Source: Thermoplasmatota archaeon (GTDB lineage Archaea; Thermoplasmatota; E2; DHVEG-1). Taken from it: 64,000 nt of DNA. The stretch covers positions 5,635 through 69,634 of the forward strand of contig JALOTN010000006.1 of NCBI GenBank assembly GCA_025457885.1. The letters run 5' to 3'. The notes under the pieces were generated by a model that worked only from the letters and a program-made list of their open reading frames with translations, was not told where the DNA came from and ran no database searches. Position 1 is the first letter of the stretch, and every line of letters begins with the position of its first letter. The translations under genes were made by a program, and so were the position numbers. Positions 6,276 through 40,034 of this stretch are shown one piece after another.

Positions 6276-6285
6276 GTGACCAATC

Positions 6286-7578: not shown

Positions 7579-8043
7579 CCTTGTTGTACTGTCGATAACA
7601 CATAGAAGGTTTTATATTTTTTCTTTTTTGTTAGATACAAAATGTTTTTTTTCTAATAAAAAAAATATGAAAAAGAAGAATCACATCTGTTTAGTGCTTT
7701 ATTGTGACTTCTTTAATAAACTCATAATTTTTTAAGGAAGATTTTAGGTACTGCATGATGAGTTGTTTTTGATCCGCGCTTAAGGTCATATGGACACCAT
7801 CAGATGTTAAAATAATCAAGGATTTCGAAAAACTCTTTTTTTAGTATATATCCTTGGTCTGTTTTTTTTATCAAATCATGTTTCAGGCAGAATTCAATTA
7901 CCTCATCCTGTTCTTCACGTTCATACATCTCTTGTTCACCTCACTTGGAATGGAGAGGATTCCATCTCTCTATAGTTTCTGTTGCCTCTGAAGATATTTA
8001 AACATAATCTGGTAGAATACCGGAATGATAATCAGCAGCAGGG

Positions 8044-10707: not shown

Positions 10708-13238
10708 GACGGATCCTCTGGCTTGGAGCATTCCTTCTCTCCTCGAGTTGGCTGTTCCTCATCCCCCAGTTCATCACCCCGAATCTCCCCGCTGGGCTGC
10801 TCTGCGTCCTCTTTGGGGTCCTCTGCTTCATCATAGGAATCTCATCAGTTGTGACACCACAACCAAACCTTCGATACCTTGTTCTCCTTTTCCCGCTCAC
10901 TATAGCAGCACTCCTAGTGCCCTTCCCCCACAATCTCGGAGTAATACTCCTTGGCCTTGGGCTTCTTTTTGTCTTGCTTTGTTACCGCTTCGAACGACTC
11001 CAAGCAATCCCCCTAGGTATTTCCCTTGCGGGGGTCCTACTCCTCCTGCAGACCCTGATCTTTCCTTTGTACGTCTCCCTTGCTTCCCATGGACATCGAG
11101 TAGACGTCCTTGCCTCAGTGATCTCCCCGATCGCGAATTTCCTTGGATTCCATACCTCGGCAACCAACGGGTTCCTCTTTGTTCAAACCCTCCAGACCAC
11201 CCCCTTCACCATCACCTGGGAGAGCCTTGGATGCCCCCTAGCCCTTAACCTCTTTCTTGCTGGGTTTTTCCTTCTCCTCCTCTTCTCCAAGACCAAACAA
11301 CAGATGCTGAAAAACACCATCATTTTTCTCATTGCAGGGACATCATACCTCCTCCTACGCTTCATCGCAATCCTCTCATTGTATCTTACGACTACAGAGC
11401 TGTCCGTGTTCTGGGACCCCTTGCTCACCACCCTTAGTTTCCTCCCCTTCAGCCTCCTTCTCATGAAACTAATCCCCCTGCAGAAACACGAAACAGTCAC
11501 CATACAAGCCCCATCGATAAAAATGACAAAAAAACACCTCGCAACCATGGTTCTTTTGATTCTTCTTGTCTCTTCATTGACTGCCGCATTCCTCTATCAT
11601 GACCCTGGGGTGAAAAAAACAGGTCGCGTCCTCATCGATGAATACCACAGCCAATGGGAAGACACCCTCCGACCTCTGGATACCGAATGGTACGGACTGC
11701 TCTCCACCTACAATTATTATTCCTGGGGGCGCTGGATATCCTATCATTATCCTGTGGAGACGAACACCAATGAGACCTTCACCACCTCACTCCTCAGTCA
11801 CTATGATATCCTCATCCTGAAATGCCCCACCGAAAGCTACACCACCCAAGAAATCCAAGCGATCAAAGACTTTGTTACCCATGGCGGAGGACTCTACCTC
11901 ATCGGGGATCATACCAACGTTTTCGGGATGAACACCTTCCTAAACCAAGTCTCTGAGGAGTTCGGGATCCGGTTCAAAACCGATGCCTCCTACGAGCTAG
12001 GCACAGGGGACCTCTCAGTCTACACCCCAGACCGATCCTATGCTCACCCCGTACTTCGTCAGGTCCCCCAGTTCGAATTCATGACCTCCTGCACCCTGGA
12101 GCCCACCTCTCTCTCCGCGTCCCTCCAAATGGAAAACATCATCATCGGCAACCGACTCATCAGCGAACCAGGCACCTATTCAACAGAGAATTTCTTCAGA
12201 GAATCCATCGCCTCCCCAGACTCCGAATACGGATACCTGCTCCAAGCTGCAGCGATCACGTACGGCGCAGGCCGTGTCGTAGCCTTCACCGACAGCACCG
12301 TATTTTCCAGCTTCTGTCTCTACACAGATGGATATCCTGCGTTCACCCTTGGCGCGTTGGAGTACCTGAATCGATCAAACTCACCAGCACCCCTATCAAC
12401 CATCCTTTTCGTCCTCGCCGTCGTCCTGTTCCTCCTCATCGCTTATCTCGTAAAAAATATCAACAAAACATTTCTCCTCTGGATGATCCTGTTTTCCGGA
12501 CTACTTGCGTTCTGCCTCACTGCCCCCCTCTGCTCATATCTCACAGACCTCTCCTATCAACCCACAGAAGCCGCTCTCGATTATCCCACGGTGGTCTTCG
12601 AACAGCAACATTCGACGGTCAACATCTCAGTTAAACCCACCGCATCACTAGGGGTTACCTCCACGAACTACGGGACGTTCTACATCTGGACCCAACGAGT
12701 CGGACTGGTCCCATCACTTGCGCCAACCCTCCATGATGCGACCACAAACGGTGATGTTATAATCCTGATTAACCCAACACGAGCTTTCACAGAAACAGAT
12801 GTGAAGCTCATCACCACCTACCTCGAACACGGCGGACGACTGCTCCTCATGGACAGCATCACAAATCCTGAATCCACTGCCAATGAACTACTTGGGAATT
12901 TTGGACTCTGGATCACCACCGAATCAACAAATAAACCACTTTACACCAATGAAACCGAGAACGGAAGTCTGACGCTCCAAGGTAATATCACCACCCCGTC
13001 GCTCACCATCACCGGCGGAACTCCCCTCCTCATCAGCAATGACAACAACACCTATGCAAGCATGGTTGAAATTACAAACCCAGACAACACCAAAGCACCA
13101 GGATACTTCGTTGTCATTGTCGACTCTGCATCGTTTTCTGATGCTCAGATGGGTGGCACCTTCACGGAACCAACAGATCAGCAACGCCAGATCTACAATA
13201 CCGAGTTTTTCCTTCTCAGAACGCTCTTGTCTTCATAA
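10704..13238 (+). CDS. giant polytopic membrane protein, paralogue of the preceding gene
   Basis: 844 aa with the same architecture: an N-terminal multi-TM region, GLYLIGDHTNVFGM plus VVAFTDSTVF in module 1, RLLLMDSITN in module 2, and an internal TM block. An ATGA overlap with the upstream gene indicates an operon. Confidence 0.6.
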   Translation: MRRILWLGAFLLSSSWLFLIPQFITPNLPAGLLCVLFGVLCFIIGISSVVTPQPNLRYLVLLFPLTIAALLVPFPHNLGVILLGLGLLFVLLCYRFERLQAIPLGISLAGVLLLLQTLIFPLYVSLASHGHRVDVLASVISPIANFLGFHTSATNGFLFVQTLQTTPFTITWESLGCPLALNLFLAGFFLLLLFSKTKQQMLKNTIIFLIAGTSYLLLRFIAILSLYLTTTELSVFWDPLLTTLSFLPFSLLLMKLIPLQKHETVTIQAPSIKMTKKHLATMVLLILLVSSLTAAFLYHDPGVKKTGRVLIDEYHSQWEDTLRPLDTEWYGLLSTYNYYSWGRWISYHYPVETNTNETFTTSLLSHYDILILKCPTESYTTQEIQAIKDFVTHGGGLYLIGDHTNVFGMNTFLNQVSEEFGIRFKTDASYELGTGDLSVYTPDRSYAHPVLRQVPQFEFMTSCTLEPTSLSASLQMENIIIGNRLISEPGTYSTENFFRESIASPDSEYGYLLQAAAITYGAGRVVAFTDSTVFSSFCLYTDGYPAFTLGALEYLNRSNSPAPLSTILFVLAVVLFLLIAYLVKNINKTFLLWMILFSGLLAFCLTAPLCSYLTDLSYQPTEAALDYPTVVFEQQHSTVNISVKPTASLGVTSTNYGTFYIWTQRVGLVPSLAPTLHDATTNGDVIILINPTRAFTETDVKLITTYLEHGGRLLLMDSITNPESTANELLGNFGLWITTESTNKPLYTNETENGSLTLQGNITTPSLTITGGTPLLISNDNNTYASMVEITNPDNTKAPGYFVVIVDSASFSDAQMGGTFTEPTDQQRQIYNTEFFLLRTLLSS

Positions 13239-13328
13239 AAAAACCCTTTTTTTTCTTTTGATTCGTCCTTATTATCCAGGATAAGCATTAAATACAGGAA
13301 CAACGATAAGTTTCTCGGGGAAAGAAAT

Positions 13329-13997
13329 ATGGAGAAAAAAACTCTCATCTTAACCGTATCGGCAGCTGCCCTCATCGTGTTTGCTTCGTTTAGCTCTGTG
13401 GTTGGCTTGACAAACGAACAATCATCAGAACAAACCAAATCACCATTGTTTGCGATTCGTACGCAACGGTCGATTCAAACAACACATGAACAAACTATAC
13501 AATCACAATACCTGGGGAAAGGGATAACCTCTCAGTTGTTCCGCTCACGACAACCATCGCTCGATAGCGCCTTGGATCGAGTAGTGAAACTGCTAAATAC
13601 GAATCCTGATTTTTTTGCAAAAATCCTAAAAACCATCACTTCAAATCCACAGGTACAATCTCTTTTGAAGAAACAAGGGATGACGATGGATGAATTTAGG
13701 ACCTATCTGAATCAACTTAAAAATGATCCATCCCTCTTCATTGAGCAGATCCGCCGTGCGGAACCAAAGTTCTCAGAACAACAGTTACAATCACCGGCTC
13801 CACTGAGTTTGAACACCACAAATCCCTTCGCGTGTGTCATCACTGCGATTGTCATGATCCCTGTTGTGCTGGTAATCGGTCTGATTGTCGTGTTATTCAC
13901 CTTACGTATCCTGCAATGTCTGAACTTTAATGAGGTCATGAATAACCTTATGGAACAGATCTTACAGGGTCTTACTCCTGGAGAGTACCTTCTCTAA
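13329..13997 (+). CDS. secreted/membrane-anchored hypothetical protein (signal peptide + C-terminal TM)
   Basis: 222 aa with an N-terminal signal MEKKTLILTVSAAALIVFASF and a C-terminal hydrophobic helix (VITAIVMIPVVLVIGLIVVLF). It sits on the same strand directly after the giant pair. Confidence 0.45.
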   Translation: MEKKTLILTVSAAALIVFASFSSVVGLTNEQSSEQTKSPLFAIRTQRSIQTTHEQTIQSQYLGKGITSQLFRSRQPSLDSALDRVVKLLNTNPDFFAKILKTITSNPQVQSLLKKQGMTMDEFRTYLNQLKNDPSLFIEQIRRAEPKFSEQQLQSPAPLSLNTTNPFACVITAIVMIPVVLVIGLIVVLFTLRILQCLNFNEVMNNLMEQILQGLTPGEYLL

Positions 13998-14072
13998 TCA
14001 TTTTTCTCTTTCTTTTTATTTTTCCTGCGATATATTTATATAGATTTCCAGAGAATGTGTACTAGTACGAAT

Positions 14073-15113
14073 ATGATTTCTCATTTGAAAACCATCCTTC
14101 ATTGTCTAGGGGTATTGCTCCTTTTAGTAATCGGGAGTGTGCCTCTTGAAGCCCAACCAGAAAAAACGGAATATGCCTCTTCTTCTCCTTCTTATGATAT
14201 GGTCATCCGAGAGGGGCTCTCTGCGATAGAACAGCAACAGAAAAGAGAAGCTGATGACTCCCAGCAGCTCTCATCGCTGGTAACCTGGTATACCACACAT
14301 CCACTCATCGAGTATGCAAGCTGCATTGAACGATCTATCACGGTGCGATTCATCGATGGTTCCTATGTAGTTCTCTTCGATCCCTTGTCTGGCACATCAG
14401 AATCCGTTATTGGTACGCAGTGGCCTTCGATTCATCAAAGATATCTGGGTCCTACAAACAAAACCGCTGTTATCCTTAACCCTGCTGAATCCATGTATGG
14501 TCATCATCAATGCCAGCGGATTATCACCACCTTGTTACAGAAGGATTATTCGATTGAATATCTCGCAAACCAGGCAGTGGATGTATCGTATATCAGAAAC
14601 AATCTGTCCGCATCAATCATCTACATGAACACCCATGCGGGGTACTTTGATATCGATGGGGATCTTTTAGCAGATGCTGTGGTCATCGCAACGGGTGAGC
14701 CTTGGACGAACGAAACAGAAATTAAATACGCTGAGGAGATTCAGAACCATCTGATTGTCAAAGGTATGGTTGGTGACCAGGGGTTTGTGACATTCACCCC
14801 AGCATTTATTGAACAATATTATTCAACAAACCCGTTCCCAGGTTCTCTGGTGTTCATGGCAACGTGTTATGCTTTGGCGGACAGTTCTATGGCACAAGCG
14901 TTCCTTAATACCGGTGCATCGGTTTACCTAGGCTGGTCTCAGAACACGGTGTTCTGGACCAATAGCAGGACCTCCGTGCAGGTGTTTCATCTTCTGGCTC
15001 TGGGTGTTCCTGTTCAGTTGATCTGTCGGATGATTCGCTCGGGAGGATTCTATAACTGGTTGTTCCATTCAAAACTCATGTATATCGGGGATGGTACCTA
15101 CACTATCCCGTAA
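14073..15113 (+). CDS. secreted caspase/gingipain-fold (clan CD-like) protein
   Basis: Signal peptide present. A candidate His (IYMNTHAGYFD) lies about 78 aa upstream of a candidate Cys in a hydrophobic strand (LVFMATCYALADS). The same spacing and pattern occur in the C-terminal domain of the 1239-aa protein. The upstream TATA box sits too close to the 14055 ATG, so 14073 is preferred. Confidence 0.4.
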   Translation: MISHLKTILHCLGVLLLLVIGSVPLEAQPEKTEYASSSPSYDMVIREGLSAIEQQQKREADDSQQLSSLVTWYTTHPLIEYASCIERSITVRFIDGSYVVLFDPLSGTSESVIGTQWPSIHQRYLGPTNKTAVILNPAESMYGHHQCQRIITTLLQKDYSIEYLANQAVDVSYIRNNLSASIIYMNTHAGYFDIDGDLLADAVVIATGEPWTNETEIKYAEEIQNHLIVKGMVGDQGFVTFTPAFIEQYYSTNPFPGSLVFMATCYALADSSMAQAFLNTGASVYLGWSQNTVFWTNSRTSVQVFHLLALGVPVQLICRMIRSGGFYNWLFHSKLMYIGDGTYTIP

Positions 15114-15116
15114 GAA

Positions 15117-15141
15117 TTTTTTTTTTTTTTTTTTTTTTTTT
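15117..15141 (+). terminator. T25 homopolymer filling the entire gap between convergent genes
   Basis: 25 consecutive T directly after the stop at 15111..15113 form a strong oligo-U terminator for the plus gene. The tract also overlaps the TAA stop of the minus-strand gene at 15140..15142. Confidence 0.5.
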
Positions 15142-15991
15142 ACCGTACCCAAAACATCGATCGCATAAGCATCTGAGCCTGCAATGGGAGATCTACTGGT
15201 TTTTTGCCTTCGATCATATCAAGGGTCGCCTGGGTGTAGGTATCAACGATCTGTTGGAAGAACCAGCGGCCATAATCACTATCAGCCCGTGCTGGGCTTC
15301 CGACATACCCCTCGGTTATTCCGATTTCTTTGAAGGTTTTACCTAAGACTCGGGGTGAATACAGATCCCGGTAGATGCTCTGGAGGTCTTTATAGGACGG
15401 GTCCACAAGGTAGGGATATTGATAGTTCATCAGGGAGGTTTCGCGGAAACAGGCATGGACTTCTTTTTTGGTATCAAAACCGACCTGTGGCTCTCGTTTC
15501 TCCACTTCTTTGTTGTAGAAATACGGTCCCCAGGGTTCGATGATTTTTATTGGTTTGTTCTTCATTGCTTTACTCATCGCACTGTAGATGGCTTTGAGAT
15601 GTCCAAGGTCCATGTGAAACGTACATATCACATAATATTTGAAACCGAATTTCGAAAGAGAACTGCAGATGTCAGTGATGATCATCTTGAGTGCTTTTAC
15701 TTGAACCGAGACTGTACCGGGGAAATCAGAGGCCATTTTTGTATATCCCAGGGGGATCGCTGGATAGAGGACACATGTCAGCTCAGGTTTCTTCTTCTTG
15801 ATTGTCCGGATTGTTTCCTTTGCGGTGTCACGTGCGGTCAAGAGATCAGTGCCGACGGGAAGATGAGGTCCATGTTCTTCTAAGGGACTTATCGGGATGA
15901 AGATGATGGTTTTCTCCCGGTCGAGTGCATCAAACTGCTTCCAGGAAAGCTCCTCGAGCTGTATGATTTTAAACTCGGTTTTGTTGTTGTT
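15140..15991 (-). CDS. creatininase-family amidohydrolase (ArfB-like) with undefined start
   Basis: The conserved N-terminal core IIFIPISPLEEHGPHLPVGTD and the preceding IIQLEELSWKQF lie in-frame upstream of the first canonical start, a TTG at 15841 (table ORF 15140..15841). The frame is open to 16015, but no ATG, GTG or TTG precedes the conserved region. Confidence 0.55.
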   Translation of the reverse strand, partial: NNNKTEFKIIQLEELSWKQFDALDREKTIIFIPISPLEEHGPHLPVGTDLLTARDTAKETIRTIKKKKPELTCVLYPAIPLGYTKMASDFPGTVSVQVKALKMIITDICSSLSKFGFKYYVICTFHMDLGHLKAIYSAMSKAMKNKPIKIIEPWGPYFYNKEVEKREPQVGFDTKKEVHACFRETSLMNYQYPYLVDPSYKDLQSIYRDLYSPRVLGKTFKEIGITEGYVGSPARADSDYGRWFFQQIVDTYTQATLDMIEGKKPVDLPLQAQMLMRSMFWVR

Positions 15992-18019: not shown

Positions 18020-18892
18020 TTATAGCAATCCTGCCTTCTGCAGGACCATCAGATCCTCAGTGCTGAGTTTCTCTCCACGTTTGAACCGTTCGAAGATATC
18101 ATCAGCCTCTTTCTGAGCAGCAGACACGTCAGCTAATTTTTTCTTTTTCTCTTTCTTCTTTTCGCTGCTTGAGATGTTTTTCTCCAGTTCATGAATATTG
18201 TTCACATGGTCGATGAATTCTTTATGAAGTTTATCCGCCTCGATTTTTGTTACAACGATATTCTCCTGAATCTCCGTGGTGCGTTTCACAAGTTTATCCA
18301 GCTGTTTGAGCAACTCCAGCATCTCCTGGTGTTCCTCTTGTGCTTTCTTCGCCATCTTCTCAACAAGCTCATGTTGTTTCTCTGCTTTCTGCCGTGTCAG
18401 TTTCTCTTCCTCGATTGCTTTTTTCAGTTTGGGGTCTTTGTTGAGTTTCTCATCAGCTTCCTTTATCTTCAAGGCGATTCCTTTGATTGTCTCAATCAAT
18501 TTTTTTTCTTTCTGGGCAGACATGGGTTGAGTCATCTGCTCTGTTTCTAGTTTCCTGAGATATTGTTTCAACTCGTTGACGTTCACACCAGAATTCGACG
18601 CTCGTTCCCGTTCAAGCTCTTTGATTTGTTTTTTTAAATCAAGATGATGGGTTAAAAACTCGTTGCGCTGCTCTTTTGCATGCTTCACTCGTTCGTTATA
18701 CTCGTCACGTTTCTTCTTATGTTCACTGATCTGGTTACGCATCTGTCGAACCTTTGCGTTCAGCTCGTCGCGCTCGCGCGCCATTTTCTTGGATTGGTCA
18801 TGGAGCTGGTCCCTGCTTTTTTTCAAATGGTTCGCTTTCTCTTGCAGGTCGTCCTTTTTTCGGACCATGTCTTCTAGTGGTTCATCGTCCAT
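18020..18892 (-). CDS. archaeal coiled-coil protein (COG1340-like)
   Basis: 290 aa with K/E/R-rich heptad repeats. It is a paralogue of 27720..28616. Confidence 0.6.
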   Translation of the reverse strand: MDDEPLEDMVRKKDDLQEKANHLKKSRDQLHDQSKKMARERDELNAKVRQMRNQISEHKKKRDEYNERVKHAKEQRNEFLTHHLDLKKQIKELERERASNSGVNVNELKQYLRKLETEQMTQPMSAQKEKKLIETIKGIALKIKEADEKLNKDPKLKKAIEEEKLTRQKAEKQHELVEKMAKKAQEEHQEMLELLKQLDKLVKRTTEIQENIVVTKIEADKLHKEFIDHVNNIHELEKNISSSEKKKEKKKKLADVSAAQKEADDIFERFKRGEKLSTEDLMVLQKAGLL

Positions 18893-21031: not shown

Positions 21032-21172
21032 TGAAAGAGGGTTTTCAAAGAAAAAAAAGGAAATGATTCAAGGAGACTGGTTATTCCCCTTTTAGTGGAT
21101 ATTTTTATTACTATAATCGAAACATATATATAATGGCCAGTCATATAATCATTACATTCAAAGGGGGCAAAT

Positions 21173-24100
21173 ATGAGTAATACAAAATATTTTAAAAAGT
21201 CAAAAATTCAGGCAGTTGTCATAGCGCTCTTATTTGTAGGAACAGTACTTATCCCTATAAATAGCATCGCTGCGAACCCAACCTCACCAAATGATACCTC
21301 GAAAAAGAATTATTTTACAGAAGACAATGAAGGAACTTTCATCCTAGATCGAAGTTATTACCTGATGGATGAAAACCCAGCATCTATGGGCACTGCGGAC
21401 AATGATGACGCAGGATATAAGAAAGACGCTGGATTGGATCTCCCCAGATCCTTAGCCCTTTATCCAGGAGAACTGATCGATGAGACACCTGGTCGTGGGA
21501 GATTTGGGAAAATCTCTTCTACGGATAACAGCGATTGGTTTTTCTTCTCCGTCTGTCAAGGACAACAGATTGTCTTTACCGTCACACCACCCTCAGGGTT
21601 TGATGTAAACCTTTCCTTATGGACCTCCGCAGGAGTCATGATGACTTCCTCAAACAACTCCGGAAGTGTCCCAGAGACAATCACCTATACCGCCGCCTAT
21701 ACCGGAAAATGGTATATCTGGATTAAATACGTCAGTGGAAGCGGCACAGGAAGATACTCGTTTGCAGTAAGTTTCACAAATCAAAATGATGCGAACAGCG
21801 GTGCTGACGCCCCGAATGTTCGAACCTCCGCACTGCTCCTCACACCAGGGACCTATTTCGGATTCGTCGATATGAACGACCCCTATGACTGGTATAAGAT
21901 ACAAGCCACAACCGGTCAAGGCATCAACGTTTCATTAAAGATGAAGGACCTCTCGTATCTTACCGATTTTGATCTTCAACTATATAATCCAAGTGGTGCC
22001 CTCGTCTTCGAAGGCAACCAATACTACGATGATGTCTTCAGCTATCCAGCCGACGTCACGGGACAATGGAGCGTCCGTGTGGATATCTTCCCTGGATGGG
22101 TTGATTGTCCTGCACCAACCGAATGGAGTTACTACTCCTATGGTTCTGGAGCTTACAACCTGACCTTAAAACTAGATACCAGTGGAGTTACTCCACCTGG
22201 GCCAATCCCACAAAAGGACATCACCCCTATCGCGAAGACCTACAAGGTCGTTAATGATGCTTCCAGCACCAAAGATGACTTCGCATACCTTGCAGCAATC
22301 CCAGCTTGTAACTACCTTGATGGCGGTCAACGCTATGTAGCACCTATTATTTACACAGGAGACACCACACCAACTGCATACTACGATGATGAGACCTCCT
22401 TTGGGACCGTGGATGATACCACCCAGTACCTCGTTGATGATTGGAATACCTATCTTGCATTATTCGGTAAAACCCCAGAACAATATACCCTAGCAGCCGA
22501 CCCGATCCAAGCCGCAGCTGATATCGCCACACGAGATTGGACGTCTTCCCAAACCGCGGTAGTCGCCGTCGATGGATCTGGTTTTGAAGATACTGTAAAA
22601 ACCGTTCTGAAACGAACCGCGACCCTGAAACGACAGTCAAGTGTTGAGACCGTCACTGGAGATAGCACTAAAATAAGAAGTATTGGAGGGTCGTATGGAT
22701 ACCCGATTTTCCTTGGACCAAAATGGTGCGCCCTGAACGTCAGCATGTATGGAGCTGGAGGAGCAACCCCTACCATTGGTGCAATACTCCCCTTATACAT
22801 GACCATGGCACAGGATTGGTGGCCAATCCCCAACGATGAGACCGTGGGACCTAGAGATGACATGTTCTACCCCGTGAACCGCATGGGAATCTGGGTCGCT
22901 GGAACCGATATCGTCAACCCTGGATGGACCTTGAATGTCACAAAAATCGCTGGAGACCGCTATCGATTCAAGGTCGCCAATGCAGACTCCGTCATCAATG
23001 CAGTAATCACCACTACTGAAGCATCTGATTTGTTAGTCTTCCTCATCGACCCACAGGGTAACCTTCGAGCACCAACCATGCCCGCCTGGAATGGGCCCGT
23101 CAGTCCTATCCATGTCTGGAATGGACTGGAGAACCCACCATCTAACCCCTGGAGATGCTGGAGGCCTGCTCCTCACACAGAATTCTCCGCTGAAGTCCTC
23201 CACCCTGAGACAGGGTTATGGACCGCGATTGTCGTACCTCGTGATGTTGGTGGTTCTAATACGAAATATACTCTCACCGTCGATGTTCGAACCGTCAACT
23301 CTGACCGTTCTGATGCGGAGATCTCCGCTGCGAACGCGGCAGTGATTGCCTCATTGAACCACTACCCGTTACTCTATGTCAACGCGGATAGTATCCCTGC
23401 GGCAACCGCAAGTGCATTCACCACTCTTGGAGTCACCAAGGTTATTTTCGTTGAACGTGGGGAAATCGGCGCAGTCGTCCGAACAAGCCTTCCAACCGTC
23501 GAAAAGGACCTGAAGACCCAACAGGAAATTGTTGATGAGATTAAGAGCTACCCTGCTTCTGAAAACTATGTCACAGCCACCTCCACAAAGACTGGGGAAG
23601 GATACTTTGCCTCAGCAGCAATGCTTGCTGCATACCACGGTGCCCCCGTCATCCGAGTCGAGGATGCACCAGATGGTGATCCCGCTGCGGTCGCACAACG
23701 AATCCACACCTGGCAACGCTGGGATGGAGATTTCTACCATGGATCCCGATCCACAGGGCATCTCCCACAAGCAGATGCACCTGTTGAACAGAACAGACTC
23801 AAAGTCTACATGACCTTGATACGGTTCTTCCTTGGTCAAAACGTCTCAGTCCCACCCTATGGACTTGATGCGAAACGCTACTGGAATGAAGAGATGTACA
23901 CCAAATTCCACAACTACATCGTTAGCCTAGGTCTGGACCTTGACGGCCAAGAAGGATACGTCACCGTCGCACCACGAGACGACATCACCCTTGAATTACA
24001 CTCCGCTCTCATGGGAAACAACTCCTATGCTGGTGACATCCCTGGAATTACCCCAGCATATTCCAGTGACATTGTAGTCCGAAACATTCTCTACCCTGCA

Positions 24101-24892
24101 TTGATTTTCGCCAACCCCAACCGGAACACCACCACAACACAACTGATGAACTACCCGGATGGTGGCTCCTGGCGGACCAACGATGGGAAAACTACACCTT
24201 CCTTCTCTAGCCGGGACGTCAAGAACTCGTTTAGCTCCCATCTCAGGACCTATGAAGGTCACTGTCTCTGGGTCGCTCACCTTGAACGAATGAACGAAGG
24301 TGCCAGTGCCATGTATTACTCAGGGCATGGAACCGGAGGTAGCGGTGTTTCTGCCCAATATGTCCAAACAGAGCACTGTAACTATCCGGAGCAAATCTGG
24401 TGGGACGCCTGGCGTGGATACATGTTCGACAACTGGAAGACCTCTCGAGACACTGGGATGGTATGGTACAATGCAGAACCACCAACTCTCTACGATATCA
24501 TCCACTACAAATGGGTCGATCAGCTGTTGGAGAACCTCCGCAGTCAAGCAACCTTCTACATGTCCTGCACCAGTGCAGATGGAGACATGCCGATGATCTA
24601 CCTTGATCATGGGTCTGTCTGCGTGTATGGGAATGCTGGAACCGGGTTGTGCCCCGAGGCGGACTTACAGGATGACCTGTTCTTCAGAGACGTCATGATC
24701 GATGGAGAACCAATCGGTCCTGCCTACACAAAACAAGTCTGGCTGCACTTCAGAGACTTCACCACCAGTGACCCGACCGCGATGTATGGGACATCATCCA
24801 TGCAGGTCACCACGATTCAGTGTATCTATGGTGACCCAAGTCTCATCGTCTACAGTCCTGAGTGGACAGCACCAGTACCCATTGATGCGTAA
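21173..24892 (+). CDS. giant secreted protein: signal peptide + two PPC (pre-peptidase C-terminal) beta-sandwich domains + C-terminal gingipain(C25)-like catalytic-type domain
   Basis: 1239 aa. A GGGGG RBS precedes the start and a signal peptide is present. PPC-like blocks occur at aa ~100-200 and ~215-330 (DWYKI..., GxYxLxL). The C-terminal region carries YYSGHGTGG (His) and ATFYMSCTSADG (Cys), the clan CD dyad pattern. Confidence 0.6.
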   Translation: MSNTKYFKKSKIQAVVIALLFVGTVLIPINSIAANPTSPNDTSKKNYFTEDNEGTFILDRSYYLMDENPASMGTADNDDAGYKKDAGLDLPRSLALYPGELIDETPGRGRFGKISSTDNSDWFFFSVCQGQQIVFTVTPPSGFDVNLSLWTSAGVMMTSSNNSGSVPETITYTAAYTGKWYIWIKYVSGSGTGRYSFAVSFTNQNDANSGADAPNVRTSALLLTPGTYFGFVDMNDPYDWYKIQATTGQGINVSLKMKDLSYLTDFDLQLYNPSGALVFEGNQYYDDVFSYPADVTGQWSVRVDIFPGWVDCPAPTEWSYYSYGSGAYNLTLKLDTSGVTPPGPIPQKDITPIAKTYKVVNDASSTKDDFAYLAAIPACNYLDGGQRYVAPIIYTGDTTPTAYYDDETSFGTVDDTTQYLVDDWNTYLALFGKTPEQYTLAADPIQAAADIATRDWTSSQTAVVAVDGSGFEDTVKTVLKRTATLKRQSSVETVTGDSTKIRSIGGSYGYPIFLGPKWCALNVSMYGAGGATPTIGAILPLYMTMAQDWWPIPNDETVGPRDDMFYPVNRMGIWVAGTDIVNPGWTLNVTKIAGDRYRFKVANADSVINAVITTTEASDLLVFLIDPQGNLRAPTMPAWNGPVSPIHVWNGLENPPSNPWRCWRPAPHTEFSAEVLHPETGLWTAIVVPRDVGGSNTKYTLTVDVRTVNSDRSDAEISAANAAVIASLNHYPLLYVNADSIPAATASAFTTLGVTKVIFVERGEIGAVVRTSLPTVEKDLKTQQEIVDEIKSYPASENYVTATSTKTGEGYFASAAMLAAYHGAPVIRVEDAPDGDPAAVAQRIHTWQRWDGDFYHGSRSTGHLPQADAPVEQNRLKVYMTLIRFFLGQNVSVPPYGLDAKRYWNEEMYTKFHNYIVSLGLDLDGQEGYVTVAPRDDITLELHSALMGNNSYAGDIPGITPAYSSDIVVRNILYPALIFANPNRNTTTTQLMNYPDGGSWRTNDGKTTPSFSSRDVKNSFSSHLRTYEGHCLWVAHLERMNEGASAMYYSGHGTGGSGVSAQYVQTEHCNYPEQIWWDAWRGYMFDNWKTSRDTGMVWYNAEPPTLYDIIHYKWVDQLLENLRSQATFYMSCTSADGDMPMIYLDHGSVCVYGNAGTGLCPEADLQDDLFFRDVMIDGEPIGPAYTKQVWLHFRDFTTSDPTAMYGTSSMQVTTIQCIYGDPSLIVYSPEWTAPVPIDA

Positions 24893-25003: not shown

Positions 25004-25411
25004 TTATCGTTGTTTTTTGAATTTATACCCGTAGTAGATCGCACCGGTTCTTCCGTCTTGTTGGATTTTCCTAAACGTGCTTTCGACTTTCATACCGATC
25101 TTAATCTCATCAAGGGGACAATCTACGATCTGCGCGGTTATCTGTGGCCCTTCCTCGAGTCTAATGATTGCGATGGGATAGGGTGTTTGCTCCTCAAAGC
25201 CGCTGGGACCGACATGAATAATACTATAGGTGATGACTTCTCCTTTCCCTGAGAATTTTAGGTCCTTCATTTTCCCGATGCTTTTCCGTCGACATATCGG
25301 ACAGGATTCCCGGGGTGGGAAAAACATCCTGCTGCAGACTTCACATTTGTTCCCCATGAAGTTATACCGCTGAGGGATCTCCCTCCAGAACCGTGCGACA
25401 CCTTCCTTCAT
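25004..25411 (-). CDS. DUF35 OB-fold/Zn-ribbon protein (scaffold of archaeal thiolase/HMG-CoA synthase complex)
   Basis: 135 aa with a CxxC...CxxC rubredoxin-like ribbon (CEVCSRMFFPPRESCPIC) plus an OB fold. It lies 2 nt downstream of the thiolase. Confidence 0.7.
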   Translation of the reverse strand: MKEGVARFWREIPQRYNFMGNKCEVCSRMFFPPRESCPICRRKSIGKMKDLKFSGKGEVITYSIIHVGPSGFEEQTPYPIAIIRLEEGPQITAQIVDCPLDEIKIGMKVESTFRKIQQDGRTGAIYYGYKFKKQR

Positions 25412-25413
25412 TG

Positions 25414-26580
25414 TTACATCCCCTCCATGATATGAACCACACAGGTTGCGCCTGAGCCGCCTACATTATGGGCAAGTCCGATTCTGGCGTCTTTGACTTG
25501 TCGTTTCCCCGCCTCATTTCGCAATTGTAAGGTGAGCTCTACGATTTGTGCGACACCGGTGGCACCTACCGGGTGGCCTTTTGCTTTCAGACCCCCGCTT
25601 GTATTCACCGGTAAGGAACCGTCCATGGTCGTGATTTTATTATCAATGGCGGTGCCGCCTTTTCCTTTTTCGATAAAACCAAGGTCTTCAATAGCACATA
25701 TCTCTGCGATGGTGAAACAATCATGGACTTCTGCAAAATCAATGTCTTTCGGAGTGACATTCGCCTGATTATAGGCCATTTTCGCGGCATGAACCGTTGC
25801 ATCAAGAGTACAGATGTCTCGTCGTCCATGGAGCGCAAGCGTGTCAGATGCTTGTCCTGAGCCGATAATTTTCACTGGTTTATCGGTGAATTTTTTTGCT
25901 TTATCCGCTGCACAGAGGACTACAGAGGCTGCCCCATCGCTGACCGGGGAGCAATCCATAAGACCTAAGGGGTAGGCCACCATGGTTGCTTTCATCACGG
26001 ATTCAAGGGATATCGCGGATTGATATTGTGCATAGGGATTGTTGACGCCATTGGCATGATTCTTGACTGCCACCTGGGCGAGTTGTTGTTTGGTCGTCCC
26101 ATATTCATGCATGTGTCGGGTGGCGATCATCGCATAAATACCCGGGAATGTCGCTCCGAAGAATGCTTCCCATTCCTGGTCGGATGCAGCTGCGAGGATA
26201 TCAGTTGCTTCTGATCCTCCGACATCATTCATTTTCTCGATACCTCCGACGACGACCACATCGTTGATACCTGAGGCAATCGAAAGATATCCTTCTCGTA
26301 TCGCAAGGCTGCCAGATGCACACGCTCCTTCGACACGGGTCGCAGGGATATGAAGTTGGGAAAATCCTGAGACTTCCGCGACGAGTGCTCCGATGTGTTC
26401 CTGGTCGACGAACCGTCCAGAACTCATAGATCCGACATAGAGGGCATCAATGTCTTTTCCTTCTATTTTCGCATCTAGGATTGCTTTCGAGCCGGCTTCT
26501 GCGATGAGCTGACGAAATGATTTATCCCACAGTTCACCAAATTTCGTTAATCCTACTCCGATGACTGCTACATCTCTCAT
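25414..26580 (-). CDS. acetyl-CoA C-acetyltransferase (archaeal thiolase)
   Basis: 388 aa. The thiolase active-site Cys lies in VEGACASGS and the C-terminal GHPVGATG block is present. Confidence 0.8.
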
Positions 26581-26587
26581 TTTTTTT

Positions 26588-27637
26588 TCACTCCAAGAAC
26601 AGTAAGTTTGTCATTTTTGAATAGACTCCATAATCAACGTATTCTTTATCTGCGACCAGTTCAGCGACAGAGGGTGCTTTTTCTCGAGCGAGTCGTTTGA
26701 TGTTCTCCGTGACGGTCATATCGAACCCATCGCTTCCTGCGCCAGAGCCATAACTGGTCATGAAAATCCGGTCCCCTGGTTTTGCGACGTCTAGAACTGA
26801 GGCAAGACCAATCATTGAGGCACCAGAATACGTATTACCGATATAGGGGACCATGAGTCCTTGTTTGACTTGATCCATGGTAAAACCCAGTTTCTTTGCC
26901 ACATTGACGGGGAATTTCCCGTTTGGCTGATGGAAGATCGCATAGGTGTAATCCTGTGGTTTTGTACATGCCGTGGTCATCAGATTGTTGGCACAGTTCA
27001 TGATATGTTTAAAATAGGCTGGTTCTCCCGTGAAACGTCCTCCATGGGAAGGGTATTTCATCTCCGCTCTTCTCCAGAAATCCGGGGTATCCGTCGTATA
27101 GGAGAGGGTATGGTTAATGGTGGCAATCACATTGGTTTTTCCGATGATGAAGCCTGCACCACCAGCAGAGGCAGAATATTCTAAGGCGTCTCCGGGTGCT
27201 GCTTGGGAGGTATCCGCTCCGATTGCTACTCCGTATTTGATCATCCCTGCTTTGACAAAGGCCAGGCAGGTTTGAATTGCAGCAGTCCCTGCTTTACAGG
27301 CGAATTCATAGTCAGCGACCATAAGGTCCGGGGTGGCTCCGATTGCCTCTCCAACGATGGTCCCTGTTGGTTTGACCGCATAGGGGTGTGATTCACTCCC
27401 GACGTAGATAGCACCAATCTGTGATGGATCAAGGGTGCATCTTTTTAAGGCGTGTCGTATCGCTTCGACTGCGATGGTTGCAGTATCCTGATCGACAGAG
27501 GGGACTGATTTTTCAAAAATCCCAAGTCCTCGGCTGATTGCGTCTCCGTCTTTTCCCCATACTTTTGCGATGACTTCTGCTTTGATACGGTAGCGTGGAA
27601 TGTGTGCCCCGTAACTGACGATTCCGATTTCTTCCAT
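26588..27637 (-). CDS. hydroxymethylglutaryl-CoA synthase
   Basis: 349 aa with archaeal HMGS motifs ([12 protein letters not shown], the catalytic Cys in EFACKAGT, and HQPNGKFP). Confidence 0.8.
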
Positions 27638-27719: not shown

Positions 27720-28616
27720 TTATCCGGAGAGGGTAATCTTCTTTCCACCTTTGAGTGCTTCTACGGATTGTTCTGCGACTTTCTCGAGTTTTTCGCTGTC
27801 CATGAGTTCCTTGCGTGCTTTGAGGTTCTGATTGCGGAGGATTTCCCGGTTTTCTTGGAAGCGTTGCATCCGTTCTTTTTTCACGGTCACAATCTTGGAT
27901 CGCATCTCGAGGGCTTTCTCATGGTTGCTTTGAGCTTCCTCTCTGACTTCGATGTATTTTTTATGTTTCTTATTGGCTTCACCGATGAGCGTGGCGATCT
28001 CATTGACTATTTTTTTGTATTCCTCATGTTTCTGTTGACTCTCATTGTAGTATTTCTGGACTTTTTCATGTTCTGTGTCTGCTTTTTTGAATAATTCTGT
28101 GATTGCTTTATCGGTGTCGGTAAGATCGACTTCTATGAGTTGTTGTTTTTCCATTTGTTTTTTTACTTCGTTGTATTCTTTTCGTTTTTGTTTGATGCGT
28201 TCGATCAGTTTGTTTTCCTTACGGGTGTCCAGGATGGTTGTCTCCTGTTCGTATTCCATCATTTGGATGTCTGCTTTGATTTCCTCTACTCGGAGCGGTA
28301 GGTTTTTTACGACATCCCCTTTTTTCTTTCGTTTCGCGTCAATAAGCTCTTTTGCCTGCTGTTGATACTGGTTCCTCTTCTCCTTGTGTTCCTTCATCTT
28401 TGCAACGAGTTTTTCCCGTTCTTTTTTGACTTTGTCCATGTCGGTTTTGAGTTCTTTGCGTTTATCATTGAGCATGTCTCGTTCGTCTCTGAACTGTTTT
28501 GCGACCTGGTTGAGCTCGTTACGCTTCTCGATGAGGCTTTGGTATTTCTTCTCTGCATTTTTTAGTTGCTCAAGGTCTTCTTTCTTTGTCGTTTCTTTAT
28601 CGCTCACAAGAGACAC
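27720..28616 (-). CDS. archaeal coiled-coil protein (COG1340-like), paralogue
   Basis: 298 aa with heptad K/E-rich repeats, the same family as 18020..18892. Confidence 0.6.
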   Translation of the reverse strand: MSLVSDKETTKKEDLEQLKNAEKKYQSLIEKRNELNQVAKQFRDERDMLNDKRKELKTDMDKVKKEREKLVAKMKEHKEKRNQYQQQAKELIDAKRKKKGDVVKNLPLRVEEIKADIQMMEYEQETTILDTRKENKLIERIKQKRKEYNEVKKQMEKQQLIEVDLTDTDKAITELFKKADTEHEKVQKYYNESQQKHEEYKKIVNEIATLIGEANKKHKKYIEVREEAQSNHEKALEMRSKIVTVKKERMQRFQENREILRNQNLKARKELMDSEKLEKVAEQSVEALKGGKKITLSG

Positions 28617-28657: not shown

Positions 28658-31486
28658 CTACTGCTCTTTTACGCGTATCCGAACCTGGTTTTTACCTTTT
28701 TCCGCTATCCAGGGGATTTGGATATCAGCGATATTTCCAGCAGGCAGCGTGACTTCAACCTTGTTCTTCTGTTTTCCGTTGAGGTAGAAAAAGACTTTCA
28801 CGTTTCGTGCTGGGATGGTTCCATTGTTCGTCAGAGTAAAGGAGGTGATCACCTTTTCACCAGGGTTGAATGCTGTTGGCCAGTGGGACACGTTTTCGAG
28901 TGCAAGAAGGGTTGTTCCTTCTTTCATCGTGGTGACCAGATCGACGGATTCCTTCTTCTTTTTCCCGATTTTATTTGCAGACAGGGTCACTTGTGTCCAG
29001 TCTTTTGGTGCTGCAGCATCGGTGGGGGTGACGGTGACATGTATCGTTTTTGATGTTTTTCCTTCGAGTTCGACGGTGGTTGGTTCTATTGATAGTCCCC
29101 ATTTATTTTCTGGGCCGGTCTGGTGTGCAGATATTTCATAGGTCTGTGCTTTTTTAAAGGGGTTTTCAATGGTGATTTCGTAGTCGGCGTTTTGGGTTGA
29201 ATCGATTTCTTTAATCCGGTCTGTGCAGATGATTCGAACAGGTTTTGAGGTGAACACGATAGCTAGAATGATGATGAAGAATAAAATGATTACGACCAGG
29301 AGTATTAAAAGAACGTATTTTCCATCCTCAATGAAACCACCGCCGATAACATTGACCGTGATTTCGATGGTGGTGGTGGCCTCTGTGCTGCTGTCAGAGG
29401 TGACGGTGATGGTGATGGTGTCGGTTTTTTCGGTGGTGTTCTTGGGGACTTCGATGAGGACTTTGGCTTCGTTTGGTTTGCTGGTGTCCCCAATGCCGAG
29501 GTTTCTGATGGATTCTTGCGGGATGAGTTTCCAGTCGTTCTTGGATGCTACGGTGATGGTGTAGCTGTCGACATCATCAACTGCGCCCGTGTTTTTGTTT
29601 TTTACGACGAAGTAGAAGAAACGGTTTTCCCCTTTGCTGATGTTAATGGTGGGAGAGTACCCAAGTATTTCAACGTCATAGGTGATTGCTTCTTCGGAGA
29701 TTTCCCCCGTGACTGTTTGACGGGCGATACCGGTGTTTCCTGAAATTACGATTAATAGGTCGATGATGCTGCCGTAGGCTTCTTTGAGGGTATTGGTGGA
29801 ATTGACGTAGACCGGTATGAGTGCATAGCTTCCAGCGGAGACGCTGACTGAATCAGGCATTGAGAATGCCCATGCACCGGTTTTTCCCCGTTCAATGATG
29901 TGTACCTGTAGGGAATCTGCTTTTTTACTACTGATGTTAATGAGGTACTGTATGCTACCACCGGGGATGATTCTTCCTTCGGGGGGTGTGGTGGTGAAGC
30001 TATTTATCTGGATGTTTTGGGTCTCTTCGTATCGGACTCTGAGCAGTGAGGGGGATTGGCTGGATGGAGCTTGCAGATATAAGGGGGTGATAACAGTTTT
30101 AGTCCCATTGCTCAACGCGATCCCAAGGGAGAGTTTCGAACCATAGGTGATTTCTTTGTCCACCCCCGTGAAATTGAAAACAACGGGGATGATTTTCTTT
30201 CGCAGGAATCCTTGAAGGTCTTTCTTCGTGAGTTGTTTCTCGGAAGTAGCGATGGTGGTGTTTGTCTCATCATATAACGTAACGATAACACCGACTTTCA
30301 GAGGTATAAGACAAAGGGTTCTGGTGAAGTACAGCTCTGCGGTGACATCCTTGATTTTTAGGATCTTGTTTCGTTCCAATCCCTGATCGTTCGTCCAGAT
30401 GGTCGGGGTGGTGGTAATCTTGGCTTTTGAGGCATTCCCCTCTTGTTGTATGTCACTCATCAGTTGGTTGGAGCCTAGGTAGTAAATGCGGATGTCATCC
30501 TTGGAGATTTTTCCGGGGATGGAGACAGACGAGGGGTGTTGGGCGGAGTTGTAAATGAGGGAGGTGGACCGCATCGCGTTGATGATTTTTGCAAAATCCT
30601 CTGATGTGATGTTCGTGAGGGTTTCTTTGGCCATGGAGATGAGGTCTTTGATGGTTGTCCCAAGGGTTTGGAGTTTTGCTAGGTTGCTGCGGTTCTCAAG
30701 CCAGTTTCCTCGTTTCTCCCATCGAGCGAGGAACTTGTTTACATCGACGTATTTGGTGATTAGTGTGGGGAGAGTCTTGTTACTGGGGATGATTTCAACG
30801 CTGAAGAGGAGGCTGTCTCCCTGGGTGAGCGTGTTGGAGACATCAGGGATGGTTATCTGTTGTTTGTAGACGCCGCTGAAGAGTTTGGGCGTCAGCAGTT
30901 GGGTGGTGTTCGCTATTTTTTTGGGGATGGGAAAGGCTGATTCCATGTTGATGGTGTAGAGGGATACCGAGACTTGGTCCCGGAATTTCTTTAGGGTGAC
31001 ATCTGAGGAGAAAAACAGGTTGTAGACGATGTCTCCTGAGATGGTCACCGGTTCGGTCCCATTATACGTGTATCCTTCGACGACTCGGAGCGGATGTGGG
31101 AGGAAGAGTTCGAAGCCTTCGAAACCAGGGATTTCACTAAAGTTGAATTCGGGGAATAAAGCGAGGAGCCAGGAGGTGAACCAGACGAGGATTTCGTCGG
31201 TGTTCGGGCTGGGGATCGGGAGTCTTTTAGAGGCATTTACTATGAGAAGATCAGGGGGGTACTTAGAATCCTTTTGACTTGTCGGCGGGTATTCTGACAG
31301 GGTGATAAAGCCATATTCAGAATAGTTTTCATCTTCCATAAGTGAAAGAGCATTGGTGAAATAAAGAGTGGTTCGTCCGGTGGATTCTTCTGCTCTGACG
31401 GATGGATTCATAAATGCTGGAAAGAGGATTCCACTGAATAGGATGTATAGGACACAGAGTACTTGGAGCGCTTTGTGCGCTAGCAT
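28658..31486 (-). CDS. large surface protein with signal peptide, internal TM segment and C-terminal CARDB-like beta-sandwich repeats
   Basis: 942 aa with a signal peptide (MLAHKALQVLCVLYILFSGILFPAFMNPSVRA). A TM helix (VLLILLVVIILFFIIILAIVF) sits about 230 aa from the C-terminus. The tail has CARDB-like patterns (FTLTNNGTIPARNVKVFFYLNG). Confidence 0.55.
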   Translation of the reverse strand: MLAHKALQVLCVLYILFSGILFPAFMNPSVRAEESTGRTTLYFTNALSLMEDENYSEYGFITLSEYPPTSQKDSKYPPDLLIVNASKRLPIPSPNTDEILVWFTSWLLALFPEFNFSEIPGFEGFELFLPHPLRVVEGYTYNGTEPVTISGDIVYNLFFSSDVTLKKFRDQVSVSLYTINMESAFPIPKKIANTTQLLTPKLFSGVYKQQITIPDVSNTLTQGDSLLFSVEIIPSNKTLPTLITKYVDVNKFLARWEKRGNWLENRSNLAKLQTLGTTIKDLISMAKETLTNITSEDFAKIINAMRSTSLIYNSAQHPSSVSIPGKISKDDIRIYYLGSNQLMSDIQQEGNASKAKITTTPTIWTNDQGLERNKILKIKDVTAELYFTRTLCLIPLKVGVIVTLYDETNTTIATSEKQLTKKDLQGFLRKKIIPVVFNFTGVDKEITYGSKLSLGIALSNGTKTVITPLYLQAPSSQSPSLLRVRYEETQNIQINSFTTTPPEGRIIPGGSIQYLINISSKKADSLQVHIIERGKTGAWAFSMPDSVSVSAGSYALIPVYVNSTNTLKEAYGSIIDLLIVISGNTGIARQTVTGEISEEAITYDVEILGYSPTINISKGENRFFYFVVKNKNTGAVDDVDSYTITVASKNDWKLIPQESIRNLGIGDTSKPNEAKVLIEVPKNTTEKTDTITITVTSDSSTEATTTIEITVNVIGGGFIEDGKYVLLILLVVIILFFIIILAIVFTSKPVRIICTDRIKEIDSTQNADYEITIENPFKKAQTYEISAHQTGPENKWGLSIEPTTVELEGKTSKTIHVTVTPTDAAAPKDWTQVTLSANKIGKKKKESVDLVTTMKEGTTLLALENVSHWPTAFNPGEKVITSFTLTNNGTIPARNVKVFFYLNGKQKNKVEVTLPAGNIADIQIPWIAEKGKNQVRIRVKEQ

Positions 31487-34119: not shown

Positions 34120-34194
34120 GGGCCCGTAGCTTAGATCGGTTGGAGCAACCGGCTGATAACCGGTAGGTCGAGAGTTCAAATCTCTCCGGGCCCA
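34120..34194 (+). tRNA. tRNA-Ile (anticodon GAT)
   Basis: A 7-bp acceptor stem GGGCCCG/CGGGCCC, the anticodon loop CUGAUAA, the T arm GAGAG-TTCAAAT-CTCTC, and discriminator A. CCA is not encoded. Confidence 0.85.
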
Positions 34195-39850: not shown

Positions 39851-40034
39851 AATTTTGATGTTTTTTTCAACAAAAATGAAGAATCATTTTTCCGAATACT
39901 ATCTTATTCGTTCCAAAAACGTTTTTACAGGGAAAAAGTAACAGATACTCGATATGTATTTAGAGGAAAAAATATATAGAAAGTTTTATTAGTAATGACA
40001 CCTATGTACAATTGTTGTGTTATGGGGGAATCCT

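Follow-up and report, generated by a model that had tools for sequence, protein, structure and literature searches.

Organization of the gene and its product

The DNA analysed here, hereafter the window, is a stretch of 64,000 nucleotides from a Thermoplasmatota archaeon (assembly GCA_025457885.1, contig JALOTN010000006.1), and our subject is a gene on its forward strand at 21173..24892 encoding a protein of 1239 residues that most likely ends in a very divergent gingipain-type cysteine protease domain. The open reading frame (ORF), read from the window sequence, begins with ATG and ends with TAA, exactly as reported in a preliminary description of this DNA, and is the sole long ORF of the interval; an antisense ORF of 137 residues inside it (22450-22863, reverse strand) is without homology support and is most likely spurious. 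The gene is judged to be real and not a chance ORF because at least 316 database clusters (90% identity) match its product, the best 120 of them over the full length at 57-87% identity. The identical protein also occurs on contigs from JGI 3300037461 and SRR12684589, with its neighbours unchanged. The features of the gene, all on the forward strand, are as follows.

21123..21167, forward: putative promoter and ribosome-binding region, read from the sequence (TATA-like catatatataat at 21123-21134; GGGGG at 21163-21167; ATG at 21173)
21173..24892, forward: complete gene, 1239 residues plus TAA; homologous clusters and the exact protein on two other contigs as above
21173..21274, forward: predicted signal peptide, residues 1-34 (Lys-rich start, hydrophobic core, NSIAA; cleavage site placed by eye)
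21425..21787, forward: PPC domain 1, residues ~85-205 (Pfam PPC; resembles the collagen-binding domain of collagenases)
21788..22177, forward: PPC domain 2, residues ~206-335 (best Pfam PPC stretch 238-304)
22184..22957, forward: conserved region, residues 338-595 (alpha/beta-looking at 338-492, beta-rich at 493-595; 75-81% column identity)
22958..23296, forward: beta-jelly-roll, residues ~596-708 (like the C-terminal domain of the Thermococcus subtilisin Tk-SP)
23297..23758, forward: CWB2-like alpha/beta module, residues ~709-862 (unit signatures AANAAVIASLNHYPLLYV and ASAAMLAAYHGAPVIRV)
23873..24889, forward: C25-like clan-CD peptidase domain, residues ~901-1239 (Foldseek, superfamily profile, hhalign)
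24326..24331, forward: predicted catalytic His1052-Gly1053, CAT GGA (aligns with RgpB His211 and canonical C25 SGHG)
24350..24547, forward: Trp-rich insert, residues ~1060-1125 (separates the His and Cys strands; almost unchanged across the family)
24566..24568, forward: predicted catalytic Cys1132, TGC (pairs with the Cys in the FTAC motif of canonical archaeal C25)

From the N-terminus, the order is signal peptide, PPC (pre-peptidase C-terminal) domain, PPC domain, conserved 338-595 region, beta-jelly-roll, CWB2-like module and C25-like domain. The Pfam PPC matches, together with AlphaFold2 (AF2) modelling and Foldseek, bear out the preliminary description in placing two PPC domains first and a caspase-fold domain with its His and Cys at the extreme C-terminus, the reverse of the gingipain order.

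A divergent gingipain-type domain at the C-terminus

Three independent lines (structure, bridging sequences and profile comparison) converge on a gingipain-like clan-CD domain. For the structural line, residues 840-1239 were modelled with AF2 from a 61-sequence alignment (predicted local distance difference test, pLDDT, 70.5; predicted template modelling score, pTM, 0.76). When the model was compared with the Protein Data Bank (PDB) by Foldseek, the gingipain structure 1CVR was the sole match below 1e-3 (E 9.8e-7); PorU, GPI8 and the OaAEP1 ligase were also among the fold matches. The domain has the alpha/beta/alpha sandwich and the strand order of clan CD, and no closer match to CHAT, separase, caspase, legumain or clostripain than to C25 was found for the 1239-residue protein. 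The preliminary description had proposed this comparison of predicted structures with known folds and had named a fold outside clan CD as the outcome that would overturn a peptidase reading; no such fold was found, and it is excluded for the C-terminal domain.

The second line came from distant relatives of the protein. Two of these reach the query-family profile at E values of about 5e-15 (P0270) and 5e-14 (P0274), and over the same region they score 43.1 and 47.8 bits, respectively, against Pfam Peptidase_C25 (PF01364; curated cutoff 23 bits). This Pfam family was matched by 6 of the 26 relatives scanned.

For the third line, a superfamily alignment of 15 sequences was assembled from the query domain and relatives at 20-60% identity. 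Its profile matched a single protein below 0.01 among PDB sequences, gingipain R (E 2.1e-4); the match placed the His of the family opposite RgpB His211 (YTGHGSE) and its terminal GDP opposite FGDPSL. A second comparison of the profile, by hhalign, was with canonical archaeal C25 enzymes encoded at related loci, which Pfam recognises as C25 at E 1e-46 to 1e-51. This comparison gave 92.6% (E 4.4e-7, 230 columns) and paired SGH1052G with SGHG, FYMSC1132 with VFTAC, HGSVCVYGNAG with NGGSIATFAEAG and IYGDPSL with MFGDPTL. It superseded a MAFFT alignment of the superfamily with canonical C25, in which His and GDP were aligned and Cys was mis-registered because insert lengths differ, as well as a hidden Markov model of six canonical C25 sequences, which gave fragmentary matches only. 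Collectively, these data suggest that the C-terminal 340 residues are most likely a cysteine protease domain of gingipain type (C25, clan CD), though a very divergent one. The earlier suggestion of a possibly non-gingipain or non-catalytic protein is not upheld, as the domain is gingipain-related and its His and Cys align with the canonical C25 dyad and are invariant at 20-60% identity.

The likeness to the Porphyromonas gingivalis gingipains RgpB and Kgp (MEROPS C25; PF01364; 1CVR, 4IEF, 4RBM) extends along the domain, with the motifs GR.p...R..lY, n.G...y.GHG, sC, HGA/GA..i.g, lGeA and (F/Y)GDP.l in the same order. Gingipains are secreted cysteine enzymes, and secretion and activity are likewise predicted for the 1239-residue protein. 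However, identity is only 10-13%, and the 1239-residue protein has no direct Pfam match in this domain. Its catalytic domain is the last one, the protein ending 17 residues past the GDP motif, whereas that of gingipains follows an N-terminal prodomain. No match to Propeptide_C25 (PF08126) was found in the 1239-residue protein, which also lacks an Ig-like domain and the C-terminal domain of the type IX secretion system and so departs from gingipain-type organization. The spacing between His and Cys is 80 residues compared with 33 in RgpB, owing to a Trp-rich insert, and the S1 Asp is not evidently conserved.

Two archaeal groups also bear comparison. Canonical archaeal C25 enzymes (Propeptide_C25 plus Peptidase_C25, 630-970 residues; for example L017:1895-3790 and L024:12487-15396) are found in the same organisms, are also exported, and are likely functional neighbours of family members in peptidase clusters. 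They differ in having the order prodomain, catalytic domain and C-terminal extension, a His-Cys spacing of ~43-55, and direct recognition by Pfam. Unannotated proteins from Asgard archaea, the bridging members of this branch, have the long-insert C25-like domain too (E about 5e-14 against the query-family profile), with the same invariant residues and with PPC, CUB or CWB2-like domains upstream. They are only 20-26% identical and, unlike the 1239-residue protein, pass the Pfam C25 threshold; their catalytic domain lies inside the protein, with Big_7, Big_13 or PKD domains after it.

The predicted catalytic dyad, its insert and paralogues that have lost it

The motifs YYSGH1052GTGG and ATFYMSC1132TSADG are both present, with a His-to-Cys spacing of exactly 80, in agreement with the earlier estimate of about 80. 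His1052 is found in 117 and Cys1132 in 114 of the 121 family sequences used for these counts. Among 23 orthologues and paralogues taken from genome loci, His is kept in all 23 and Cys in all but one (L020). Across the 15-sequence superfamily, the invariant positions are H1052-G1053, C1132, G948, G954, R970, N981, D1116, H1146-G1147, G1182 and G1220-D-P. In the AF2 model, a strand at 1046-1050 directly precedes G-H1052-G and a strand at 1126-1130 precedes S-C1132, which is the clan-CD arrangement: as modelled, the dyad would run His then Cys, each closing a core beta-strand, with Gly after the His.

What widens the spacing to 80 residues is an insertion that follows the His strand; its consensus in the close family is YP.QIWWDAWRGY..D.W...R..G..WYN.EPP.LYD (W1076, W1077, D1078, W1080, R1081, G1082 and Y1083). 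Spacing ranges from 64 to 95 across the 15 aligned members of the branch, so that, as far as these alignments go, the archaeal branch as a whole is characterised by a long His-Cys spacing. The insert of the Asgard relatives contains NPDxxGDGxxNP, a motif that resembles a Ca2+-binding site and is absent from the query family.

Nine of the 121 sequences lack His and/or Cys, and all nine are short, at ~1185-1209 residues. Members of this short-form group are P0034, P0038, P0049, P0057, P0058, P0061, P0062, P0063 and P0067 and the loci L008:5881-9480 and L020:318-3596. They keep the signal peptide and the whole architecture, read GQ/GH[AS]TGG at the His motif, and mostly replace Cys with T, G, A, L, I or S. 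Some genomes have two family members of which one is the short form, as in JADBLO01, with an intact copy (L003) and a short one (L008). With an intact copy alongside, the short-form protein is a likely pseudo-peptidase. Since only short-form proteins have lost the dyad, it appears to be under selection in the main clade.

Predicted export signal and putative substrate-binding domains

A Kyte-Doolittle scan of the 1239-residue protein detected one strongly hydrophobic stretch only, at residues ~9-35, in support of the preliminary description of a secreted protein. The N-terminus reads MSNTKYFKKSK-IQAVVIALLFVGTVLIPI-NSIAA, a layout like that of a Sec signal peptide, and the signal peptide is kept across the family, degenerate paralogues included. 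Because this N-terminal hydrophobic segment is the only one, the protein is most likely Sec-exported.

Pfam PPC (PF04151) matches two stretches (E 4.8e-12), with 47 bits against a curated cutoff of 25.9. The two PPC domains are homologous to each other (hhalign, 98.5%; E 1.5e-15). When the family profile was searched against PDB, it matched the tandem collagen-binding domains of ColG (5IKU) at E 2e-8 over residues 107-260, and also single collagen-binding domains. The likeness to the s3a-s3b segment of this clostridial collagenase thus includes a tandem pair of collagen-binding-type PPC domains; these precede the protease domain in the 1239-residue protein, but follow it in collagenases.

The middle of the protein had been taken for a long linker. 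That view does not hold: column identity over residues ~338-900 is 0.75-0.81, equal to or above that of the catalytic domain, and a beta-jelly-roll and a CWB2-like module lie inside. Residues 338-595 had no Pfam match and no PDB sequence match. Over the jelly-roll motif SDLdlfLiDPqGn...G.WtivV, a profile of 26 relatives matched the Tk-SP structures 3AFG and 9UES (E 3-5e-6); the jelly-roll has weak similarity to PPC domain 2 (hhalign, 7%). The same profile matched Clostridioides difficile Cwp6 at E 6.6e-8, with Cwp8 and the SlpA high-molecular-weight subunit also matched. Query segment 705-862 on its own reached E 0.011 and 16.7 bits against CW_binding_2 (PF04122), under the cutoff of 24.9 bits. 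Residues ~709-862 are thus best called CWB2-like on these profile matches, and membership in PF04122 is not claimed. In common with the CWB2 repeats of Cwp6, Cwp8 and SlpA, the module has A..A...aPlL signatures, at ~716-740 and ~812-830; it differs from the classical arrangement of three tandem repeats in having no clear triple repeat and a sub-threshold Pfam score. The idea of a triple CWB2 array, with 338-492 as an internal repeat of 705-862, was negative by hhalign and stands only as speculation at the level of motifs. No matching glycan ligand for the module was identified in this archaeal lineage here.

Distribution and genomic context

All named sources of the homologous clusters are Thermoplasmatota metagenome-assembled genomes (MAGs), and the carriers include recognised MBG-D/Thermoprofundales MAGs (SM1-50 and M11B2D). 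For M11B2D_scaffold_1484, the contig of one family member (L025), no MEROPS call or expression value was found in the supplements of Zhou et al. 2018. Source labels call family members only "PPC domain-containing" or "hypothetical" protein. Searched against 1.84 billion representative proteins, the C-terminal domain profile found only 65 matches, so the domain forms a small branch. Its named distant relatives are from Odinarchaeota (MCD6515738.1 and MCD6380901.1) and Promethearchaeota (MFX1485865.1).

Orthologues at 52-90% identity occupy the same gene block. Upstream, the block runs through the gene for an exported clan-CD protein of 352 residues (described below), creatininase, methionine aminopeptidase (M24), Sua5, a helix-turn-helix (HTH) protein, DUF7121, a second HTH protein and DUF1614 to the 1239-residue gene; downstream, it continues with an OB-fold protein, thiolase, HMG-CoA synthase, DUF7121 and a CARDB protein. 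In comparisons that give thiolase an identity of ~80%, the values are 52-57% for the 1239-residue protein, 55-57% for the methionine aminopeptidase, 48-53% for Sua5 and 31-41% for the CARDB surface protein. Both flanking genes lie on the opposite strand, and since the upstream DUF1614 gene is divergent, a promoter of its own is probable for the 1239-residue gene. The gene is thus probably a stand-alone transcription unit with its own predicted promoter. No operon partner was found for the gene, whose flanks are transcribed in the opposite direction and whose conserved neighbours have housekeeping functions.

In more distant genomes, family members are found amid secreted peptidases, namely canonical C25 enzymes with Propeptide_C25 and the strong Pfam matches given above, C13 legumain-PKD and M28-PKD proteins. 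Such peptidase islands were seen at L016, L017, L024, L027 and L012, on the flanks of the family match at ~6001-9750. The complete chromosome CP070724.1 has two copies of the family, one of which (L017) is flanked by secreted peptidases.

Proposed function and alternatives

We favour, at a probability of about 0.68, the reading that the 1239-residue protein is a Sec-exported C25-like cysteine endopeptidase for extracellular proteolysis by a Thermoplasmatota archaeon of sediment or wetland; what we infer is that it is exported and catalytic, which kind of substrate it acts on, and how the PPC, CWB2-like and insert parts contribute. The signal peptide would direct export, and the two PPC domains, which resemble collagen-binding domains, would anchor the enzyme to an insoluble or polymeric protein substrate. 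The middle part, with its beta-jelly-roll and CWB2-like units, would form a rigid scaffold and possibly a tether to glycans of the cell envelope. As in gingipains, Cys1132 would attack the scissile bond and His1052 would act as general base; the conserved Trp-rich insert between the catalytic strands would probably form a lid or an extended substrate-binding surface. Such an enzyme has a published setting: extracellular C25 peptidases are reported to dominate among the exported peptidase genes of anoxic sediments, making up 41-45% of the peptidase genes with a signal peptide in White Oak River sediments (PMC6752024), and in Thermoprofundales they are described as abundant and expressed (PMC6461988, PMC9585477), highly so in one report (PMC6461988).

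Several results weigh against this reading. Direct searches of Pfam, NCBIfam and PDB (phmmer) with the whole protein returned no match for the C-terminal domain; PF01364 had no match to the whole protein at E<=1 or to segment 860-1239 at E<=5; the close-family profile had no match for this domain among PDB sequences (hmmsearch) and reached just 1.3% against canonical C25 by hhalign. The close family fails to reach C25 because it is too uniform (>56% identity), and the C25 link emerged only once representatives at 20-45% identity were added to the profile. C25 membership thus depends on bridging sequences and a model of moderate confidence, and should be taken as a prediction. The position near RgpB Asp163, in S1, is mostly His and lies in a poorly aligned stretch, so Arg/Lys specificity should not be assumed. 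The Trp-rich insert beside the active site has an AF2 pLDDT of 30-40; such values would fit packing on a part outside the truncated model, or ordering on substrate. Loss of His and/or Cys in a paralogous subclade shows that the scaffold can persist without catalysis. Finally, in the window the gene lies outside any peptidase cluster, in a conserved housekeeping block where it evolves about as slowly as methionine aminopeptidase, and this placement and slow evolution would also fit a more specific, non-nutritional role.

Such a role is the core of the best-surviving alternative, which we nevertheless regard as unlikely: a cell-surface processing enzyme or transpeptidase whose C25-like domain would cleave or ligate specific envelope proteins, as PorU, GPI transamidase and legumain-type ligases do, while the CWB2-like module, through its resemblance to cell-wall-binding repeats, would hold it in position at the surface. 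Clan CD includes transpeptidases, three of which (PorU, GPI8 and the OaAEP1 ligase) were fold matches of the domain; PorU, the C25-family sortase of type IX secretion (6ZA2), is itself a large multidomain surface enzyme and a precedent for a transpeptidase role. The stand-alone transcription unit is retained in a housekeeping block conserved across relatives, and all 1239 residues change at a housekeeping-like rate, far slower than the CARDB surface protein. However, similarity to PorU is low, and no linked partner, substrate gene or sorting-signal system was found, both flanks being on the opposite strand. Elsewhere, family members stand amid secreted peptidases of digestive type, and a tandem pair of collagen-binding-type PPC domains is well suited to capturing substrate.

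An extended form of the surface-processing proposal is less likely again. The protein would be the founding member of an archaea-specific (Thermoplasmatota plus Asgard) C25-like branch that matures or covalently attaches surface proteins, a sortase analogue of PorU or GPI-transamidase type and not an enzyme of bulk digestion, with the degenerate paralogue as its non-catalytic partner or regulator. The Trp-rich lid, the CWB2-like envelope anchor and the housekeeping-like conservation would reflect that dedicated role.

No more probable than this extended form is a non-catalytic pseudo-peptidase, that is, a surface adhesin or structural protein using the clan-CD fold as a binding module only. 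No family model recognises the C-terminal domain, the non-catalytic parts are as conserved as it is, and the paralogous subclade of ~1200 residues, with GQ/GH[AS]TGG and with Cys changed to T, G, A or L, has kept the rest. However, His-Gly and Cys match the canonical C25 dyad in alignments and stay invariant out to the Asgard relatives, which are 20% identical, and sequences that have lost one or both residues are confined to the nine short forms among the 121.

With the endopeptidase reading favoured, the 1239-residue family extends a known enzyme family and overturns nothing, gingipain-like peptidases being already known in Thermoplasmatota. What is new is a well-populated branch overlooked by the Pfam and NCBIfam models searched, with the catalytic domain last and a long conserved insert between the catalytic residues, a combination of PPC, jelly-roll and CWB2-like domains, a reach to Asgard archaea, and a paralogue with a degenerate dyad. 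Because the family is labelled only as PPC or hypothetical proteins, inventories of archaeal protein-degrading capacity that are based on Pfam or NCBIfam overlook it, and the bridging alignment offers a route to its annotation. The C-terminal position of the catalytic domain, the conserved His-Cys insert, the CWB2-like module and the paralogue that has lost the dyad are targets for biochemistry.

A second clan-CD protein and other genes of the window

The preliminary description had linked the 1239-residue protein to a protein of 347 residues starting at 14073. That protein is present and belongs to clan CD, as its predicted structure indicates; its stated start at 14073 corresponds to Met7 and would give 346 residues, one short of the stated 347. 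The full ORF encodes 352 residues from 14055:

14055..15113, forward: exported clan-CD protein of 352 residues (His194 at 14634-14636; Cys271 at 14865-14867; a separate family)

The protein has NTH194AG and MATC271, 77 residues apart, and both residues are invariant in its family, which comprises 121 clusters, all from Thermoplasmatota, with homologues of 347 or 353 residues. The family had no Pfam match, and a PDB profile search was without matches. The AF2 model (pLDDT 86.7) shows roughly equal similarity to CHAT, gingipain, separase, metacaspase and caspase, and its His-Cys insert is a well-folded beta element (hairpin plus sheet) unrelated to the Trp-rich loop. Comparison of the two families by hhalign, the superfamily alignment of the large protein included, gave 0.25% (E 0.24, 28 columns), 0.3% and 1.1%, and the 352-residue family reached 0.5% against canonical C25. 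The similar spacing and the pattern after the Cys, both noted earlier, do occur in the small protein; the pattern is offset by one residue between the two, and since the hhalign match over 28 columns has an E value of only 0.24, it is no more than a generic clan-CD motif.

It is accordingly very improbable that the two proteins form one distinct, possibly non-gingipain caspase-fold subfamily defined by a His-Cys spacing of ~80, as had been suggested from their clan-CD folds, conserved His and Cys 80 and 77 apart and similar motif past the Cys: the hhalign values between the families are only 0.25-1.1%, the large protein resembles C25 in particular and the small one several clan-CD families about equally, a Trp-rich loop of low confidence is set against a well-folded hairpin and sheet, and spacing varies from 64 to 95 within the superfamily of the large protein itself. 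A common subfamily is disfavoured, and what the proteins have in common is the clan.

The 352-residue protein is encoded by the last gene of a conserved four-gene cluster (8044-15113, forward strand). The others encode polytopic membrane proteins of 887 and 844 residues with IFT52_GIFT, ABC_transp_aux and DUF4350 (GldG-like) domains, and a protein of 222 residues that has no Pfam match and has hydrophobic N- and C-terminal segments. The same four-gene order is found in L030 (GCA_975967355.1), where the corresponding protein has 353 residues and is 65-66% identical. This conserved cluster suggests that the 352-residue clan-CD protein works with a GldG-type membrane complex.

Directly downstream of the 1239-residue gene, and convergent with it, lies a mevalonate-pathway trio (25004-27637, reverse strand) encoding a DUF35/ChsH2 OB-fold protein, thiolase and HMG-CoA synthase, which marks the window as archaeal core genome. 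Two DUF7121 paralogues (18020-18892 and 27720-28616, both reverse strand) flank the gene block, an arrangement kept in related MAGs. The CARDB protein of the block (28658-31486, reverse strand) has 942 residues and Ig-like domains; it is probably a surface protein and diverges much faster than its neighbours. An Rfam scan of the window returned one match, a tRNA gene at 34120-34194 (forward strand), and nothing tied to the 1239-residue gene. In several genomes, genes near family members encode secreted proteins with a right-handed beta-helix (NosD/Beta_helix) and PKD or Big_7 domains (L018:10502-13710 and L008:3662-5740), and such proteins also occur in the window, at 40017-42152 (forward strand). 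The creatininase-family ORF at 15140-15841 (reverse strand) encodes 233 residues from a TTG codon; its homologue in L030 has 288 residues, so the start may lie further upstream.

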